Below, one piece after another: positions 1-5,386 of a stretch of 5,386 bases of DNA. Source of the DNA: Shigella phage SGF3. How positions within the stretch are numbered: position 1 is the stretch's first letter; the number at the start of each line of letters is the position of its first letter. Below the pieces are notes generated by a model. That model had not been told where the DNA came from. It ran no database searches and was given only the letters and a program-made list of their open reading frames with translations. The stretch is from the sequence record MN266305, one strand, 5' to 3'. A program made the position numbers and the translations under genes.

Positions 1-269
1 ATGCGTCCAAGAAGTTCAAGATTGCTGAGGGTCAATGGTATCGCTATGCACCGTCTTACGTTTCTCCTGCATATCACCTCCTTGAAGGCTTCCCATTTAT
101 TCAGGAACCGCCTTCTGGTGATTTGCAAGAACGTGTTCTTATTCGCCATCATGACTATGACCAGTGTTTCCAGTCTGTTCAGTTGCTGCAGTGGAATAGC
201 CAGGTGAAATTTAATGTGACCGTTTATCGCAATCTGCCGACTACTCGTGATTCAATCATGACTTCGTGA
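1..269 (+). CDS. F: Major capsid protein F, 3' portion (continues from 4372..5386 across the circular junction; first codon spans 5386,1,2; stop TGA at 267-269)
   Basis: Frame 3 translates without stops to ...GNASKKFKIAEGQWYRYAPSYVSPAYHLLEGFPFIQEPPSGDLQERVLIRHHDYDQCFQSVQLLQWNSQVKFNVTVYRNLPTTRDSIMTS*, matching the phiX174 F C-terminus as I recall it. 1015 nt + 269 nt = 1284 nt, the phiX174 F length. Confidence 0.93.
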   Translation, partial: ASKKFKIAEGQWYRYAPSYVSPAYHLLEGFPFIQEPPSGDLQERVLIRHHDYDQCFQSVQLLQWNSQVKFNVTVYRNLPTTRDSIMTS

Positions 270-300
270 TAAAAGATTGAGTGTGAGGTTGTAACGCCGA

Positions 301-328
301 AGCGGTAAAAATTTTAATTTTTGCCGCT
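301..328 (+). repeat. AT-rich imperfect inverted repeat (hairpin) in the F-G intergenic region; position matches the phiX174 primosome assembly (PriA/n') site and the TF terminator region
   Basis: agcggtaaaaatt (301-313) pairs with aatttttgccgct (316-328) with one G-T wobble; the non-coding spacer 270-379 lies between the F stop and G start. Confidence 0.6.
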
Positions 329-379
329 GAGGGGTTGACCAAGCGAAGCGCGGTAGGTTTTCTGCTTAGGAGTTTAATC

Positions 380-907
380 ATGTTTCAGACTTTTATTTCT
401 CGCCATAATTCAAACTTTTTTTCTGATAAGCTGGTTGCCACTTCTGTTACTCCAGCTTCTTTAGCACCTGTTTTACAGACACCTAAAGCTGCATCGTCAA
501 CGTTATATTTTAATCAGTTGACGGTTAATGCAGGTAATGGTGGTTTTCTCCATTGCATTCAGATGGACACATCTGTCAATGCCGCTAATCAGGTTGTTTC
601 TGTTGGTGCTGATATTGCTTTTGATGCCGACCCTAAATTTTTTGCCTGTTTGGTTCGTTTTGAGTCTGCTTCGGTTCCGACTACTCTCCCGACCGACTAT
701 GATGTTTATCCTTTAGATGGTCGCCATGATGGTGGTTATTATACTGTTAAGGATTGCGTGACCATTGACGTCCTTCCACGTGAGCCGGGCAATAATGTTT
801 ATGTTGGTTTCATGGTTTGGTCTAACTTTACCGCTACTAAATGCCGCGGATTGGTTTCGCTGAATCAGGTTATCAAAGAGATTATTTGTCTCCAGCCGCT
901 TAAGTGA
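380..907 (+). CDS. G: Major spike protein G (175 aa)
   Basis: ATG at 380 preceded by AGGAG (368-372, 7-nt spacing). Protein [19 protein letters not shown]...[10 protein letters not shown] matches phiX174 G with roughly 9 substitutions (from memory). The ORF-track start at 335 is an unsupported upstream extension. Confidence 0.93.
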
Positions 908-915
908 GGTGATTT

Positions 916-1902
916 ATGTTTGGTGCTATTGCTGGTGGTATTGCTTCCGCTCTTGCTGGTGGCGCCATGTCTAAATTGTTTGGAGGCGGTCAAAAAGCCG
1001 CCTCCGGTGGCATTCAAGGTGATGTTCTTGCTACCGATAACAATACTGTAGGCATGGGTGATGCTGGTATTAAGTCTGCTATTCAAGGTTCTAACGTTCC
1101 CAACCCTGATGAGGCCGCACCTAATTTTGTTTCTGGCGCTATGGCTAAAGCTGGTAAAGGACTTCTTGAAGGTACGTTGCAGGCTGGCACTTCTGCCGTT
1201 TCTGATAAGTTGCTTGATTTGGTTGGACTTGGTGGCAAGTCTGCCGCTGATAAAGGAAAGGATACTCGTGATTATCTTGCTGCTGCATTTCCTGAGCTTA
1301 ATGCTTGGGAGCGTGCTGGTGCTGGTGCTTCCTCTGCTGGTATGGTTGACGCCGGATTTGAGAATCAAAAAGAGCTTACTAAAATGCAACTGGACAATCA
1401 AAAAGAGATTGCCGAGATGCAAAATGAGACTCAAAAGGAGATTGCTGGCATTCAGTCGGCGACTTCACGCCAGAATACGAAAGACCAAGTATATGCACAA
1501 AATGAGATGCTTGCTTATCAACAAAAGGAGTCTACTGCTCGCGTTGCTTCTATTATGGAAAACACCAATCTTTCCAAGCAACAGCAGGTTTCTGAGATTA
1601 TGCGTCAGATGCTTATGCAAGCTCAAACGGCTGGTCAGTATTTTACCAATGACCAAATCAAAGAGATGACTCGTAAGGTCAGTGCTGAGGTTGACTTAGT
1701 TCATCAGCAAACGCAGAATCAGCGGTATGGTTCTTCTCATATTGGCGCTACTGCAAAGGATATTTCTAATGTCGTCACTGATGCTGCTTCTGGTGTGGTT
1801 GATATTTTTCATGGCATTGATAAAGCTGTTGCCGATACTTGGAACAATTTCTGGAAGGACGGTAAAGCTGATGGTATTGGCTCTAATTTGTCTAGGAAGT
1901 AA
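916..1902 (+). CDS. H: Minor spike / DNA pilot protein H (328 aa)
   Basis: ATG at 916 with GAGG at 906-909. 987 nt, the same as phiX174 H. Gly/Ala-rich N-terminus [25 protein letters not shown] and coiled-coil-like Q/E-rich middle, as in phiX174 H. Confidence 0.95.
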
Positions 1903-1911
1903 CCGTCGGGA

Positions 1912-1940
1912 TTGACACCTTTCTAATTGTATGATTTCAT
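1912..1940 (+). promoter_or_regulatory. Candidate sigma70 promoter PA for gene A: -35 TTGACA (1912-1917), 17-bp spacer, extended -10 TG-a-TTTCAT (1932-1940)
   Basis: Perfect -35 consensus in the H-A intergenic region; the -10 is a 4/6 match with an upstream TG. Position corresponds to the phiX174 PA region. The exact -10 assignment is uncertain. Confidence 0.5.
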
Positions 1941-1965
1941 GCCTCCAAATCTTGGAGGCTTTTTT
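1941..1965 (+). terminator. Stem-loop plus T6 tract (rho-independent-terminator-like, TH position) that also contains the gene A Shine-Dalgarno
   Basis: gcctccaa (1941-1948) / ttggaggc (1952-1959) form a perfect 8-bp stem with a 3-nt loop, followed by tttttt (1960-1965) and then the A start codon. GGAGG at 1954-1958 sits inside the 3' arm. Confidence 0.7.
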
Positions 1966-3507
1966 ATGGTTCGCTCTTATTACCCTTCTGAATGTCACGC
2001 TGATTATTTTGACTTTGAGCGCATTGAGGCTCTTAAGCCCGCTGTTGAGGCTTGTGGCATTTCTACCCTTTCTCAATCTCCGATGCTTGCCTTTTATAAG
2101 CAGATGGAAAACCGCATCAAGCTCTTGGAAGAGATTCTGTCATTTCGCATGCAGGGCGTTGAGTTCGATAATGGTGATATGTATGTCGACGGTCATAAGG
2201 CTGCTTCTGATGTTCGTGATGAGTTTGTATCTGTTACTGAAAAGTTAATGGATGAATTGGCACAATGTTACAACGTGCTCCCCCAACTTGATATTAATAA
2301 CACTATAGACCACCGCCCCGAAGGGGACGAAAAATGGTTTTTAGAGAACGATAAGACGGTTACGCAGTTTTGCCGTAAGCTGGCTGCTGAACGTCCTCTT
2401 AAGGATATTCGAGATGAGTATAATTACCCTAAAAAGAAAGGTATTAAGGATGAGTGTTCAAGATTGTTGGAGGCCTCCACTATGAAATCGCGTAGAGGCT
2501 TTACTATTCAACGTTTGATGAATGCAATGCGTCAGGCTCATGCTGATGGCTGGTTTATCGTTTTTGACACTCTTACGCTGGCTGATGACCGCTTAGAGGC
2601 GTTTTATGATAACCACAATGCTTTGCGTGACTATTTTCGTGATATTGGTCGTATGGTTCTTGCTGCCGAGGGTCGTAAGGCTAATGAATCACATGCCGAC
2701 TGCTATCAGTATTTTTGTGTGCCTGAGTATGGTTCAGCTAATGGCCGTCTTCATTTCCATGCGGTGCATTTTATGCGGACACTTCCTACAGGTAGCGTTG
2801 ACCCTAATTTTGGTCGTCGGGTACGCAATCGCCGCCAGTTAAATAGCTTGCAAAATACGTGGCCTTATGGTTACAGTATGCCTATCGCAGTTCGCTATAC
2901 GCAGGACGCTTTTTCACGTTCTGGATGGTTGTGGCCTGTTGATGCTAAAGGTGAGCCGCTTAAAGCTACCAGTTACATGGCTGTTGGCTTCTATGTGGCT
3001 AAATACGTTAACAAAAAGTCAGATATGGACCTTGCCGCTAAAGGTCTAGGAGCTAAAGAATGGAACAACTCACTAAAAACCAAGCTGTCGTTACTTCCCA
3101 AGAAATTATTCAGAATCCGAATGAGCCGCAACTTCGGGATGAAAATGCTCACAATGACCAACCTATCAATGGAATGCTTAATCCAGCTTACCAAGCTGGG
3201 TTACGACGCGACACCGTTCAATCAGATATTGAAGCAGAACGCAAAAAGAGAGATGAAATCGAGGCTGGCAAAAGTTACTGTAGCCGACGTTTTGGCGGCG
3301 CAACCTGTGACGACAAATCTGCTCAAATTTATGCGCGCTTCGATAAAAATGATTGGCGTGTCCAACCTGCAGAGTTTTATCGCTTCCATGACGCAGAAGT
3401 TAACACTTTCGGATATTTCTGATGAGTCGAAAAATTATCTTGATAAAGCAGGAATTACTACTGCTTGTTTACGAATTAAATCGAAGTGGACTGCTGGCGG
3501 AAAATGA
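1966..3507 (+). CDS. A: Replication initiation protein A (513 aa), HUH rolling-circle endonuclease
   Basis: ATG at 1966 after the GGAGG-containing hairpin. Protein [25 protein letters not shown]... matches phiX174 A. HUH motif in [10 protein letters not shown]; catalytic tyrosine pair in [10 protein letters not shown] (codons 343 and 347, nt 2992-2994 and 3004-3006). The ORF-track start at 1927 is an upstream extension. Confidence 0.95.
2284..2313 (+). other. Origin of (+)-strand rolling-circle replication (30-nt ori; gene A protein nick site between G2290 and A2291)
   Basis: caacttgatattaataacactatagaccac is identical to the phiX174 30-nt origin as I recall it, at the same offset (318 nt) from the A start codon. 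Confidence 0.85.
2482..3507 (+). CDS. A*: A* protein (in-frame internal initiation within gene A; 341 aa)
   Basis: In-frame ATG at 2482 ([16 protein letters not shown]...), 516 nt downstream of the A start, the same offset as phiX174 A*. Upstream GGAGG at 2469-2473. Confidence 0.7.
2848..2880 (+). promoter_or_regulatory. Possible PB promoter region upstream of gene B (inside gene A): -35-like TTGCAA (2848-2853), -10-like TACAGT (2872-2877)
   Basis: phiX174 is known to have a promoter for B inside A. The hexamers here are weak matches and my positional recall is imprecise. Confidence 0.3.
3060..3422 (+). CDS. B: Internal scaffolding protein B (120 aa), encoded entirely within gene A in a different frame
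   Basis: ATG at 3060 with AGGAG at 3048-3052. Protein [15 protein letters not shown]...[12 protein letters not shown]; the C-terminal half matches phiX174 B, the N-terminal third is more diverged. Stop TGA at 3420-3422. Confidence 0.93.
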
Positions 3508-3592
3508 GAAAATTCGACCTATCCTTGCGCAGCTCGAGAAGCTCTTACTTTGCGACCTTTCGCCATCAACTAACGATTCTGTCAAAAACTGA
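3422..3592 (+). CDS. K: Protein K (56 aa), overlapping the end of A/B and the start of C
   Basis: ATG at 3422-3424 overlaps the B stop (TGATG). Translates [56 protein letters not shown], matching phiX174 K. Below the ORF-track size cut-off. Confidence 0.85.
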
Positions 3593-3764
3593 TGCGTTGG
3601 ATGAGGAGAAGTGGCTCAATATGCTTGGCACGTTCGTTAAGGACTGGTTTAGATATGAGTCACATTTTGTTCACGGTAGAGATTCTCTTGTTGACATTTT
3701 AAAAGAGCGTGGATTACTATCTGAATCCGATGTAGTTCAACCATTAATAGGTAAAAAATCATGA
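3504..3764 (+). CDS. C: Protein C (86 aa), DNA maturation / switch from RF replication to ssDNA synthesis
   Basis: ATG at 3504 overlaps the A stop (ATGA, stop 3505-3507). Protein [86 protein letters not shown]. 261 nt, as in phiX174. Confidence 0.92.
3691..3720 (+). promoter_or_regulatory. Candidate PD promoter inside gene C: -35 TTGACA (3691-3696), 18-bp spacer, -10 TACTAT (3715-3720)
   Basis: Perfect -35 hexamer and a 4/6 -10. The predicted start near 3727-3729 corresponds to the phiX174 D-promoter start as I recall it (about nt 358 in reference numbering). Confidence 0.6.
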
Positions 3765-4219
3765 GTCAAGTTACTGAACAATCTGTACGTTTCCAAACCG
3801 CACTGGCTTCTATCAAGCTGATTCAGGCCTCTGCTGTTTTGGATTTAACCGAAGATGATTTCGATTTTCTGACGAGCAACAAAGTTTGGATTGCTACTGA
3901 CCGCTCTCGCGCTCGTCGCTGTGTAGAGGCTTGCGTTTATGGTACGCTGGACTTTGTGGGATACCCTCGCTTTCCTGCTCCTGTTGAGTTTATTGCTGCC
4001 GTCATTGCTTATTATGTTCATCCCGTCAACATTCAAACGGCCTGTCTCATCATGGAAGGCGCTGAGTTTACGGAAAACATTATTAATGGCGTCGAGCGTC
4101 CGGTTAAGGCCGCTGAGCTGTTCGCGTTTACCCTGCGTGTACGCGCAGGAAACACTGACGTTCTTACTGACGCAGAAGAGAACGTCCGCCAGAAATTACG
4201 CGCAGAAGGAGTGATGTAA
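3761..4219 (+). CDS. D: External scaffolding protein D (152 aa)
   Basis: ATG at 3761 overlaps the C stop (ATGA). Protein [34 protein letters not shown]...RQKLRAEGVM appears identical to phiX174 D (from memory). Confidence 0.96.
   Translation: MSQVTEQSVRFQTALASIKLIQASAVLDLTEDDFDFLTSNKVWIATDRSRARRCVEACVYGTLDFVGYPRFPAPVEFIAAVIAYYVHPVNIQTACLIMEGAEFTENIINGVERPVKAAELFAFTLRVRAGNTDVLTDAEENVRQKLRAEGVM
3939..4214 (+). CDS. E: Lysis protein E (91 aa), MraY inhibitor, encoded within gene D in the +1 frame
   Basis: ATG at 3939. N-terminal transmembrane segment MVRWTLWDTLAFLLLLSLLLPSLLIMFIPSTFKRPVSSWKAL is conserved with phiX174 E; the C-terminal tail differs (…KRTSARNYAQKE). 276 nt, as in phiX174. Confidence 0.92.
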   Translation: MVRWTLWDTLAFLLLLSLLLPSLLIMFIPSTFKRPVSSWKALSLRKTLLMASSVRLRPLSCSRLPCVYAQETLTFLLTQKRTSARNYAQKE

Positions 4220-4335
4220 TGTCTAAAGGTAAAAAACGTTCTGGCGCTCGCCCCGGTCGTCCGCAGCCGTTGCGAGGCACTAAAGGCAAGCGCAAAGGTG
4301 CTCGCCTTTGGTATGTAGGCGGTCAACAATTTTAA
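4219..4335 (+). CDS. J: DNA-binding / packaging protein J (38 aa, highly basic)
   Basis: ATG at 4219-4221 overlaps the D stop (TAATG), with AGGAG at 4206-4210. Translates MSKGKKRSGARPGRPQPLRGTKGKRKGARLWYVGGQQF*, matching phiX174 J. Confidence 0.9.
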   Translation: MSKGKKRSGARPGRPQPLRGTKGKRKGARLWYVGGQQF

Positions 4336-4371: not shown

Positions 4372-5386
4372 ATGTCTAATGTTCAAACTGGCGCAGAGCG
4401 CATGCCGCATGACCTTTCTCACCTCGGTTTCCTTGCTGGTCAGATTGGTCGTCTTATTACCATTTCAACTACTCCGGTTATCGCTGGCGACTCCTTCGAA
4501 ATGGACGCCGTGGGCGCTCTCCGTCTTTCTCCATTGCGTCGCGGCCTTGCTATTGACTCTACCGTAGACATTTTTACTTTTTATGTCCCTCATCGTCATG
4601 TTTATGGTGAGCAGTGGATTAAGTTTATGAAAGATGGCGTTAATGCCGCTCCGCTCCCGACCGTTAACACTACTGGTTATATTGACCATGCCGCTTTTCT
4701 TGGCACGATTAACCCTGATACCAATAAAATTCCTAAGCATTTGTTTCAGGGTTATCTGAATATCTATAACAACTACTTTAAAGCGCCGTGGATGCCTGAC
4801 CGTACTGAGGCTAACCCTAATCAGCTTAACGAAGATGATGCTCGTTATGGCTTCCGCTGCTGCCATCTCAAAAACATTTGGACTGCTCCGCTTCCTCCAG
4901 AGACTGAGCTTTCTCGCCAAATGACAACTTCTACCACGTCTATTGACATTATGGGTCTGCAAGCTGCTTATGCTAATTTGCATACTGACCAAGAACGTGA
5001 TTATTTCATGCAGCGTTACCGTGATGTTATTTCTTCATTTGGAGGTAAAACGTCTTATGACGCTGACAACCGTCCTTTACTTGTCATGCGCTCTAATTTC
5101 TGGGCATCTGGCTATGATGTTGATGGAACTGACCAAACGTCGTTAGGCCAGTTTTCTGGTCGTGTTCAACAGACCTATAAACATTCTGTGCCGCGTTTCT
5201 TTGTTCCTGAGCATGGCACTATGTTTACTCTCGCGCTGGTTCGCTTCCCGCCTACAGCGACTAAAGAGATTCAGTACCTCAATGCTAAAGGTGCTTTGAC
5301 TTATACCGATATTGCTGGCGACCCTGCCTTGTATGGCAATTTGCCTCCGCGTGAAATTTCTATGAAAGATGTTTTCCGTTCCGGTA
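4372..5386 (+). CDS. F: Major capsid protein F, 5' portion (338 codons plus 1 nt; continues at 1..269 across the circular junction; full length 427 aa)
   Basis: ATG at 4372 with GAGGA at 4361-4365. MSNVQTGAERMPHDLSHLGFLAGQIGRLITISTTPVIAGDSFEMDAVGALRLSP... runs open to the window end and matches phiX174 F apart from a few substitutions. Confidence 0.95.
   Translation, partial: MSNVQTGAERMPHDLSHLGFLAGQIGRLITISTTPVIAGDSFEMDAVGALRLSPLRRGLAIDSTVDIFTFYVPHRHVYGEQWIKFMKDGVNAAPLPTVNTTGYIDHAAFLGTINPDTNKIPKHLFQGYLNIYNNYFKAPWMPDRTEANPNQLNEDDARYGFRCCHLKNIWTAPLPPETELSRQMTTSTTSIDIMGLQAAYANLHTDQERDYFMQRYRDVISSFGGKTSYDADNRPLLVMRSNFWASGYDVDGTDQTSLGQFSGRVQQTYKHSVPRFFVPEHGTMFTLALVRFPPTATKEIQYLNAKGALTYTDIAGDPALYGNLPPREISMKDVFRSG

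Follow-up and report, generated by a model that had tools for sequence, protein, structure and literature searches.

Judged from sequence identity with phiX174, positions 2284-2313 of the Shigella phage SGF3 genome are almost certainly the ori+ of a phiX174-like microvirus, embedded in the gene that encodes the initiator. The 30-mer is taken to be the functional unit, and a short hairpin at 2314-2329 lies outside what is essential. The window analyzed was the complete phiX174-like genome of 5386 nt, which was 95.5% identical to phiX174 (colinear) and 99.4% identical to Salmonella phage PJNS001 over the whole genome. SGF3 and phiX174 differed at 243 of the 5386 positions, the differences closest to the origin being those at 2274 and 2352, and phiX174 positions were converted to SGF3 positions by subtracting 2015. 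The origin and the features of the gene which surrounds it were as follows.

1966-3507, + strand: gene A, encoding the rolling-circle replication initiator (Rep) of 513 aa, from the ORF and its translation (phiX174 gene A, 3981..136)
2284-2313, + strand: viral (+) strand origin of rolling-circle replication (ori+), 30 nt, A codons 107-116, from 30/30 identity with phiX174
2482-2484, + strand: start of A*, an in-frame ATG (Met173), from the phiX174 A* start at 4497, equivalent to SGF3 2482
2752-2772, + strand: HUH motif HFHAVHF, residues 263-269 (His263 and His265), from the translation
2992-3006, + strand: catalytic tyrosine pair in GFYVAKYV, Tyr343 at 2992-2994 and Tyr347 at 3004-3006, from the translation

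The 30-mer (CAACTTGATATTAATAACACTATAGACCAC) had a single, mismatch-free occurrence in SGF3 (2284-2313, + strand), and shuffled SGF3 sequences gave no origin match even with up to 3 mismatches allowed. Because the match was unique, perfect and absent from the shuffles at this tolerance, it is far beyond chance. A sequence-only reading of this DNA had placed a phiX174-type origin within gene A and had proposed alignment to phiX174 (NC_001422) nt 4299-4328 as a check; the two sequences were identical at 30 of 30 positions, leaving the core around the G^A nick site without mismatch, and the origin was in frame with gene A, where codons 107-116 encode 10 residues. In NC_001422 the rep_origin feature is placed at 4306 (SGF3 2291), and a phiX174 deep mutational scan puts cleavage at G4305/A4306 (10.64898/2026.07.25.740675). 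By identity, the SGF3 nick site would lie between G2290 and A2291. Additional copies of the cleavage decamer gave no signal in SGF3 (8 matches with at most 2 mismatches vs 6.1 expected), and a full-text literature search with the origin 30-mer returned no match. At the sequence level no evidence counts against the origin assignment.

The A protein matched the Pfam family Phage_GPA (PF05840) over residues 76-354 with 207.4 bits against a cutoff of 31.4, which assigns SGF3 A to the Phage_GPA HUH endonucleases. The earlier reading had ascribed to the A product an HUH motif and the tyrosines Tyr343/Tyr347, and all of these were located in the translation at the residues listed above. Both histidines of H263-F-H265 were invariant across an alignment of five divergent A proteins, the two tyrosines fit the Y-x-x-x-Y spacing, and their Y-V-x-K-Y-V context was also present in the A proteins of G4, alpha3 and L018. 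In phiX174, according to the mutational scan, Tyr343, Tyr347, His263 and His265 are mutation-sensitive (10.64898/2026.07.25.740675). The origin precedes the A* start, in the N-terminal portion of the gene, which is specific to A.

The steps of rolling-circle replication are established for phiX174 and are carried over here to SGF3 by sequence identity. On supercoiled replicative-form DNA, protein A would bind ACTATAGACCA, the origin's 3' half, and melting of the AT-rich spacer would expose CAACTTG^ATA in single-stranded form. One of Tyr343/Tyr347, assisted by Mg2+ held by His263/His265, would cut between G2290 and A2291 and remain linked to the 5' phosphate of A2291, the 3'-OH of G2290 would prime the host polymerase, and the duplex would be unwound by Rep helicase. 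One turn later the second tyrosine would cut the regenerated origin and the first would transfer its strand to give a closed circle; late in infection the circle would be packaged during synthesis.

Comparison of sequences between lineages indicated that the origin is made up of two invariant halves and an 8-nt spacer which is freely variable from one lineage to another.

2284-2293, + strand: 5' conserved half (CAACTTGATA), the putative recognition and cleavage sequence, conserved across lineages
2294-2301, + strand: AT-rich spacer, origin positions 11-18, variable between lineages in the comparison
2302-2312, + strand: 3' conserved half (ACTATAGACCA), invariant in nine lineages

Each of the ten deep lineages had the 5' half in the form C[A/G/T]ACTTGATA, and we take the 3' half to correspond to what the classical model calls the 'key' sequence for binding. 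The spacer was TTAATAAC in phiX and G4, ATAGTAAC in alpha3, TATTAGGC in L057, ATACATGC in L096/L099, TAAAATAC in L097, TATATAAC in L103 and TAAATAAC in L105; origin position 30 also varied between lineages, being C, A, T or G. Within 23 Bullavirinae sequences from four clades a single codon was used at each of the ten origin codons with two exceptions in the spacer, both of them amino-acid-changing substitutions in the alpha3 clade (2 codons each at two spacer positions). Eight of the ten origin codons were thus represented by one codon only despite degenerate amino acids, while the codons adjoining the origin were represented by 5 and 6 different codons and the flanking codons overall by 2-10 each. 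Nucleotide-level conservation in these 23 sequences ended exactly at base 2313. The pattern of halves plus spacer is as expected from the classical model of recognition, spacer and binding sequences, and the uncultivated relatives make a modest addition to it. Fluit, Baas and Jansz in 1985, Brown et al. in 1983, and Aoyama and Hayashi reportedly found the bare 30 bp to be sufficient in plasmids. Synonymous changes at A codons Q107-D115 were detrimental in the phiX174 scan, which attributes this to ori+ (10.64898/2026.07.25.740675), and the origin was unmutated in all 16 viable AI-generated phiX-like genomes (10.1101/2025.09.12.675911).

The closest known system is the phiX174 ori+ itself (NC_001422 nt 4299-4328), with the same 30 nt, frame, codons (A 107-116) and placement upstream of the A* start; the downstream 38 nt, hairpin included, are also as in SGF3, with zero differences within 2275-2351. 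In G4-like phages (Gequatrovirus) the 30-nt block is identical and occupies the corresponding site within gene A, and the alpha3-like (Alphatrevirus) origin has the same gene A placement and differs from SGF3 at 2 spacer positions; in both groups the sequence departs from SGF3 directly after base 30. CRESS-DNA viruses, pC194-/pMV158-type plasmids and relaxase oriT likewise use an HUH/Tyr single-strand nick and a 5'-phosphotyrosine link and, as in phiX174-type replicons, rolling-circle synthesis with strand transfer at termination (PMC5714925). In these other HUH replicons the nick site is typically in or beside a hairpin loop, whereas the SGF3 nick would fall in an unstructured AT-rich stretch. 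In the predicted fold 2284-2313 was unpaired and the sole stem began 24 nt 3' of the nick.

Two structures were predicted directly after the origin.

2314-2329, + strand: short G+C hairpin (CGCCCCGAAGGGGACG), encoding R117-P118-E119-G120-D121, from the single-stranded DNA fold
2330-2342, + strand: AAAAA-TGG-TTTTT, a weak A/T stem, from the DNA fold and clade comparison

The CCCC/GGGG stem which the sequence-only reading had suggested directly 3' of the origin did form in the single-stranded DNA fold, as a stem of 2316-2319/2323-2326 with a GAA loop, outer pairs 2314-2315/2328-2329 and A2327 bulged. The hairpin is real but weak, and its thermodynamics alone are unremarkable: the DNA MFE was -4.2 kcal/mol (z -1.3 to -1.6), about 10% of shuffles folded equally well, and 17 SGF3 loci had a 26-nt window at least as stable, the origin hairpin tying for weakest among them. 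As RNA its MFE was -8.0 kcal/mol. The A/T stem at 2330-2342 contributed little to the stability of the DNA fold (about -1.1 kcal/mol), was confined to the phiX clade (40% of cells pair across the subfamily) and is probably incidental.

Of about ten deeply diverged lineages, four had a hairpin at the equivalent position, a recurrence above chance expectation: the phiX clade, L057 (5 bp, loop GAA), L105/L106 (7 bp, loop CAC) and L103 (5 bp, loop ATCT). L057 (IMG/VR 3300020045_001231), L105/L106 (ERZ22382522 / ERR12549845) and L103 (MH622942) are uncultivated Bullavirinae-like genomes which have the same architecture in gene A (CAACTTGATA, 8-nt spacer, ACTATAGACCA) with the G+C hairpin directly after; their A proteins are only 41-54% identical and their spacers differ, and the L105 copy is cut short, with bacterial genes joined to it. 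The alpha3 clade had no hairpin after the origin (MFE 0), the G4 clade had only a 3-bp ACC/GGT stem, and a distant CTACTTGATA...TAAGTGAC group, which gained a single further member from a second scan of viral contigs with protein profiles, had no hairpin. No covariation of the hairpin was detected across the subfamily, where 45.9% of cells pair vs 49.8% in shuffles and 26-48% in slid controls, and only 2 pairs were changed on both sides. A structure conserved throughout the subfamily was rejected on these grounds, there being no covariation and pairing no better than in shuffles. Two large protein searches were dominated by noisy phiX174 fragments and provided just P0145 and P0161 as useful divergent lineages. 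Scans of metagenomes and genome collections, aimed at variant origins, returned one chance match in a bacterial gene, in two collections (L102, L111), and one intriguing bacterial intergenic match (L110).

Most likely, the hairpin is a flanking feature which some lineages carry and could do without, and published data indicate that it is not essential; a lineage-specific accessory role, in line with the contribution to origin structure which the sequence-only reading had allowed for, is possible. The DO5 mutant, with synonymous changes from nt 4331 (SGF3 2316, a stem base), had a plating efficiency of 1.0 at 37 C (PMC13386984). Lab-evolved phiX174 lines carried C->T at the equivalent of 2328, one of them also R117C at 2314, and at least three hairpin bases (2314, 2316, 2328) are changeable in viable phages. 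The natural phiX-clade isolates listed all matched wild type over the 55 nt queried, an invariance which is uninformative because divergence within the clade is too shallow. With regard to coding, GGG accounted for 2 of the 119 Gly codons in SGF3, the only one outside a gene overlap being G120 in the hairpin, and CCC, used for P118 in the hairpin, for 7 of the 68 Pro codons. GGGG occurred 3-4 times per sequence in the four hairpin-bearing sequences, with one copy at +39, +39, +39 and +41 from the origin start. The rare-codon usage together with the recurrence in other deep lineages suggests nucleotide-level selection in the phiX lineage, and we put the odds that the hairpin is under some selection of this kind at roughly even.

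There is a realistic, if less than even, chance that the hairpin is an incidental coding by-product, in which Arg-Pro-Glu-Gly-Asp gives CCN NNN GGN, and completion to 4 bp and the similar hairpins elsewhere are due to chance and shared ancestry. The Pro and Gly codons set pairs 2318-2324 and half of every other pair, and the z of only -1.3 to -1.6, the 17 SGF3 loci which fold as well and the lack of covariation across the subfamily are all consistent with such an origin, as is a phiX-clade divergence too shallow for invariance to count. In L018 the corresponding R-P-D-G-D is encoded as CGC CCT GAT GGT GAT and makes no stem. However, three synonymous-saturated lineages would all have to keep GGG, the rarest Gly codon, together with a rare CCC Pro codon in the same place, for which the chance of codon retention by codon frequencies was about 0.0045 (L057) and 0.02 (L106), and a very rare tetramer would be needed at the same offset in four lineages. 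A mere Pro-x-Gly by-product is therefore weakened by the codon usage, the GGGG frequency and the additional lineages.

The hairpin may instead be a selected, non-essential accessory cis-element of ori+ in some phiX-like lineages, a reading which we consider possible but somewhat unlikely. It would abut the 30-nt origin in the phiX clade, L057, L105/L106 and MH622942, with the rarest Gly codon holding the stem against codon preference, and it might act as a stem-loop on the displaced or packaged single strand some 25-40 nt 3' of the nick, or in the supercoiled duplex. Its task might be to modulate origin use, by tuning initiation or termination and re-initiation, or to modulate how single-strand packaging begins. 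The 24 nt after the origin folded in the top 2.4% of same-sequence windows in SGF3, 4.4% in L057, 3.3% in L103/MH622942 and 0.2% in L106 (perfect 7-bp stem, -7.9 kcal/mol), giving a Fisher p of ~9e-4 over 9 clades and a binomial of ~1e-3 for 4 of 9, but the test window and threshold were picked after the data were seen. L103 has, at the same place, another stem (CCCTT/AAGGG) and another peptide, and in L106 the stem is kept while the loop changes from GAA to CAC. The rare codons GGG (G120) and CCC (P118) are in the stem, and elsewhere the codon is shared at only 40-41% of identical A amino acids between SGF3 and L057 or L106, so that synonymous sites are saturated in these comparisons; GGGG is also at a near-constant origin offset (+39 to +41) in four lineages. 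Against a selected element, CCCC..GGGG and Pro-x-Gly-Asp are common to three of the four lineages and homologous, so these three are not independent events, and six lineages are without the hairpin, including the well-studied G4 and alpha3 clades, which share the conserved 30-nt origin. The stem is also weak (-4.2 kcal/mol), viable phiX174 variants are altered at 2314, 2316 and 2328, and codons 117-121 are not among the origin-linked detrimental synonymous sites named in the scan's text (10.64898/2026.07.25.740675).

We regard it as improbable that the constraint is at the RNA level, either through the SD-like AAGGGG (by pausing ribosomes, as a standby site, or by driving a tiny out-of-frame ORF) or through mRNA structure inside gene A. 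AAGGGG is common to SGF3, L057 and L103, with ACGGGG in L106, an ATG follows 7-11 nt downstream in SGF3 (2334), L106 and L103, and the RNA fold of 2284-2345 was -13.9 kcal/mol (z = -3.07), matched by 1 of 200 shuffles. However, the small ORF has 6 codons in SGF3 vs 18 in phiX174 and is thus not conserved even within the phiX clade, L057 is without a start codon at a workable distance, and systematic disruption of phiX174 cryptic ORFs uncovered no new gene (PMC6883844). Within 2150-2500 no rho-independent terminator (a G+C stem with 5 or more pairs, then a T run) was found on either strand, no promoter-like site was found, and an Rfam covariance-model search gave no match at E <= 1.

It is also quite unlikely that the G+C runs flanking the origin (CTCCCCC at 2277-2283 and CCGCCCCGAAGGGG at 2313-2326) act in the duplex irrespective of their inverted symmetry, by confining supercoil-driven melting to the AT-rich origin or by an extended protein A contact: two of the 7 genome CCC codons (P106, P118) flank the origin at most 12 codons apart, the AT-rich stretch between both runs is the origin, and in an AlphaFold 3 model of A bound to dsDNA the base pairs of the AT-rich spacer are predicted to be disrupted, but the upstream flank is mostly not G+C- or C-rich elsewhere (TCGGA in G4, TTAAA in L018, CTATCT in L057), PJNS001 already differs at 2280, and the binding data are confined to the 30-mer.

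Few replication elements in biology are as well characterised as the phiX174-type origin and initiator, and the origin and initiator of SGF3 are an already known textbook system whose recognition mainly confirms the phage type. If the hairpin were a selected accessory element it would extend the classical '30-nt origin' in the hairpin-bearing lineages. The recurrence of the hairpin, with its very rare codons and tetramers, is a hint that in some lineages slightly more than 30 nt may belong to the functional origin, and the hairpin question is relevant to the recoding or design of phiX-like genomes.

The window spans an entire phiX174-like genome (genus Sinsheimervirus) in rotated form. Relative to the colinear phiX174 genome (NC_001422) it has 243 substitutions and no indels (95.5% identity), and a phiX174 position minus 2015 gives the window position. 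Genes H, A/A*, B, K, C, D, E, J, F and G were all recovered in its ORF map. The nearest record was Salmonella phage PJNS001 (99.4% identity), whose 33 substitutions are nearly all transitions; 23 of the 33 (about two thirds) lie in 1 kb of gene A (2229-3260), while 4420-5385 and 1-859 contain none. Recombination could account for this clustering in A, as could relaxed or adaptive evolution of the gene. The features of the origin region are as follows.

1966-3507, + strand: gene A, 513 aa, holding the 30-mer in frame as codons 107-116
2284-2313, + strand: viral-strand origin (ori+) 30-mer CAACTTGATATTAATAACACTATAGACCAC, single exact copy in the window
2314-2329, single-stranded DNA fold: hairpin CGCCCCGAAGGGGACG, 4-bp CCCC/GGGG stem, GAA loop, two outer pairs across a bulge
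2482, + strand: internal start of A* (Met173), downstream of the origin
2752-2772, + strand: HUH motif HFHAVHF, residues 263-269 of A
2992-2994, + strand: Tyr343
3004-3006, + strand: Tyr347

The sequence-only reading had described an origin embedded in the A coding sequence and an A product carrying the HUH motif and the Tyr343/Tyr347 pair, and it was confirmed as correctly interpreted. The 30-mer is identical to phiX174 nt 4299-4328, with no mismatch around the G^A nick site, and motif and both tyrosines are present. The rep_origin at 4306 in the phiX174 RefSeq record corresponds to window 2291, shuffles of the window gave no match to the 30-mer even at up to three mismatches, and protein A scored 207 bits against Pfam Phage_GPA (threshold 31). 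That phiX174 has this origin within gene A, and an A protein with the HUH motif and the two tyrosines, is already textbook knowledge; the window's genome is an exact member of the phiX174 type on every testable feature.

By sequence identity with phiX174, for which every step is established, protein A would bind supercoiled replicative-form DNA at the 3' half of the origin, and melting of the spacer would follow. A tyrosine would then attack the G2290/A2291 phosphodiester and become linked to the 5' end, leaving a 3'-OH that would prime synthesis. Once a round was done, the second tyrosine would cleave the regenerated site and the first would reseal the displaced circle (PMC5714925). Most other HUH origins present the nick site in a hairpin loop, whereas in the predicted fold the window's phiX174-type origin does not.

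Codon comparison shows the 30-mer to be a DNA element rather than coding sequence alone. The region was taken from 23 distinct sequences covering the phiX174, G4/ID52/ID18 and alpha3/phiK/St-1 clades and the uncultivated lineage L018. In the codon alignment a single codon was used at 8 of the 10 origin codons despite degenerate amino acids, and variation at the other two (origin positions 11 and 14) was amino-acid-changing and confined to the alpha3 clade. The codons just before and just after the origin took 5 and 6 different forms, respectively, and other invariant amino acids nearby were encoded by 2-5 codons each. Published results agree with the 30-mer as a DNA element. In the complete phiX174 mutational scan (10.64898/2026.07.25.740675), synonymous mutations were detrimental at A codons Q107 to D115 and were assigned to ori+, cleavage was placed at G4305/A4306, and Tyr343, Tyr347, His263 and His265 were highly mutation-sensitive; the origin was also unchanged in all 16 viable AI-generated phiX-like genomes (10.1101/2025.09.12.675911).

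Six further deep lineages were obtained by pattern scans and protein-guided searches (L057, L096/L099, L097, L103 (MH622942), L105/L106 and L100/L101/L122), with A proteins only 36-54% identical to that of the window. All but the most distant group share the layout C[A/G]ACTTGATA, an 8-nt spacer that differs in each deep lineage, ACTATAGACCA and one variable base. This layout matches the classical three-part model, reportedly proposed by Baas, Jansz and van Mansfeld, in which a sequence for recognition and cleavage is followed by an AT-rich spacer and then by the key binding sequence.

The most distant group consists of microvirus-like contigs whose A-like proteins have a conserved core about 33-42% identical. 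At the equivalent place in the gene these contigs carry a related motif, CTACTTGATA, about 9 nt and TAAGTGAC (L100 2788-2817, L101 131-160, L122 1309-1338), perhaps a variant origin in which the 'key' half differs; no hairpin follows it. On the minus strand of a Silicimonas sp. MAG contig (L110 2402-2428; JAJDZT010000121.1, 7305 nt), CGACTTGATAGAAATAACACTATAGACCAC agrees with the phiX-type origin at 27 of 30 positions. It lies between genes, about 175 nt upstream of one for an AAA_15/DUF3696 ATPase and close to one for a phage integrase, and the surroundings contain no microvirus genes. The agreement far exceeds the demands of the search pattern (chance about 4e-4); it may mark the remains of an integrated element, or have some other source. 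With the relaxed origin pattern, the sole metagenome hit and one of the genome hits (L102 1911-1937 and L111 4666-4692) are one sequence, CGACTTGATAAACTCGCCACTATAGACCAA, inside a Bacteroidales protein-coding gene and were judged a chance match. Bullavirinae-like G, H and a cut-off A occur in L105 (1-3918 of ENA ERZ22382522 NODE_354, 116 kb) and L106 (Logan ERR12549845, 5.9 kb). Their A gene ends at residue 305, keeping the HUH motif with the tyrosines beyond the cut, and in both assemblies the phage genes directly abut bacterial FMN-reductase, ArsR and ArsB genes; this arrangement could stem from the integration and decay of a microvirus fragment or from chimeric assembly.

That a short CCCC/GGGG stem can form directly after the origin, as also read from the sequence, was borne out by the single-stranded DNA fold of 2314-2329. 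Several results make this hairpin look ordinary. Its minimum free energy of -4.2 kcal/mol (z-score -1.3 to -1.6) is equalled by about one in ten shuffles, 17 loci in the genome hold 26-nt windows at least as stable, and the hairpins known from the terminators and the complementary-strand origin fold much more strongly (-6.7 to -10.3). Within 2150-2500 it was not terminator-like on either strand and matched no RNA family. Between-clade similarity stops exactly at base 2313; the stem is missing in the alpha3 clade, is a 3-bp ACC/GGT in the G4 clade, and L018 encodes R-P-D-G-D with stem-breaking codons. Across the 23-sequence alignment pairing was found in 45.9% of cells vs 49.8% when shuffled, with no excess over slid controls.

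The hairpin is also altered in viable phiX174 variants. Three laboratory-evolved isolates (EF380024 3F90 and EF380030 250C55, our L028 and L029, and EF380025) carry C->T at the 2328 equivalent, synonymous at D121 (GAC->GAT), and one adds C->T at 2314 (R117C); both changes strike the outer pairs, and the shared one could be due to parallel adaptation or common ancestry. The phiX174 mutant DO5 (PMC13386984) has 39 synonymous changes, the first of them at nt 4331 (the outermost base of the 4-bp stem, window 2316); it still plates with an efficiency of 1.0 at 37 C, and the authors describe its earlier mutation batches as phenotypically wild type. The text of the mutational scan (10.64898/2026.07.25.740675) lists no origin-linked detrimental synonymous site past D115.

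We first concluded that the stem merely reflected Pro-x-Gly codons (CCN NNN GGN), a conclusion weakened by further tests. In the seven major genes of the window's genome GGG accounts for 2 of 119 glycine codons, one fixed by the overlap of A with B, the second being G120 in the stem, and 2 of the 7 CCC codons (among 68 proline codons) flank the origin. CCCC-NNN-GGGG recurs at the window's offset in both L057 (A protein 41% identical) and L105/L106 (54%), where codons are shared at only 40-41% of identical A residues elsewhere, so that synonymous sites are saturated. L057 has TCCCC GAA GGGGA; L106 has a perfect 7-bp stem with a different loop (CGTCCCC CAC GGGGACG, -7.9 kcal/mol), the strongest after-origin hairpin seen; and L103 has at this position another peptide and another stem, CCCTT ATCT AAGGG. 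The 24 nt after the origin ranked in the top 2.4%, 4.4%, 3.3% and 0.2% of same-sequence windows in the window, L057, L103 and L106, respectively, and at 22-100% in the remaining five of the clades tested (Fisher p ~9e-4; binomial for 4 of 9 ~1e-3). GGGG has only 3-4 copies in each of these four sequences, one of them 39, 39, 39 and 41 nt from the origin start. The statistics were computed post hoc, and the motif is homologous in three of the four lineages, so we take the recurrent hairpin and rare-codon signal as suggestive of constraint, not conclusive. The + strand of the whole window has GGGG only at 331 (F-G intergenic, beside the complementary-strand origin and T_F hairpin), 2323 (the hairpin after ori+) and 4341 (T_J terminator hairpin).

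If real, the constraint could act on a hairpin in the displaced single strand, or on the G+C runs in duplex DNA, bounding the melted region or extending the A contact; mRNA structure inside gene A is a further candidate, given that the RNA fold of 2284-2345 reached -13.9 kcal/mol (z = -3.07). In that fold the origin 3' half CUAUAGACCA forms a stem with UGGUUUUUAG (2335-2344) that encloses the CCCC/GGGG hairpin; this extended stem (2303-2344) is absent from the minimum-energy fold with DNA parameters; L106 has an analogous ACCAC/GTGGT complementarity. A translational reading of the Shine-Dalgarno-like AAGGGG, which the window, L057 and L103 have in common and which is followed by an ATG at 7-11 nt in the window and L103 (as is the equivalent site in L106), has low weight because the out-of-frame ORF from 2334 has 6 codons in the window vs 18 in phiX174 and systematic removal of phiX174 cryptic ORFs exposed no hidden gene (PMC6883844). 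In the window this ORF (2334-2354, MVFRER*) starts at the ATG after the Shine-Dalgarno-like GAAGGGGA, and G->T at 2352 relative to phiX174 makes its earlier stop. For these phages, the flanking hairpin might be a lineage-specific accessory element, an idea we hold tentatively and think rather unlikely.
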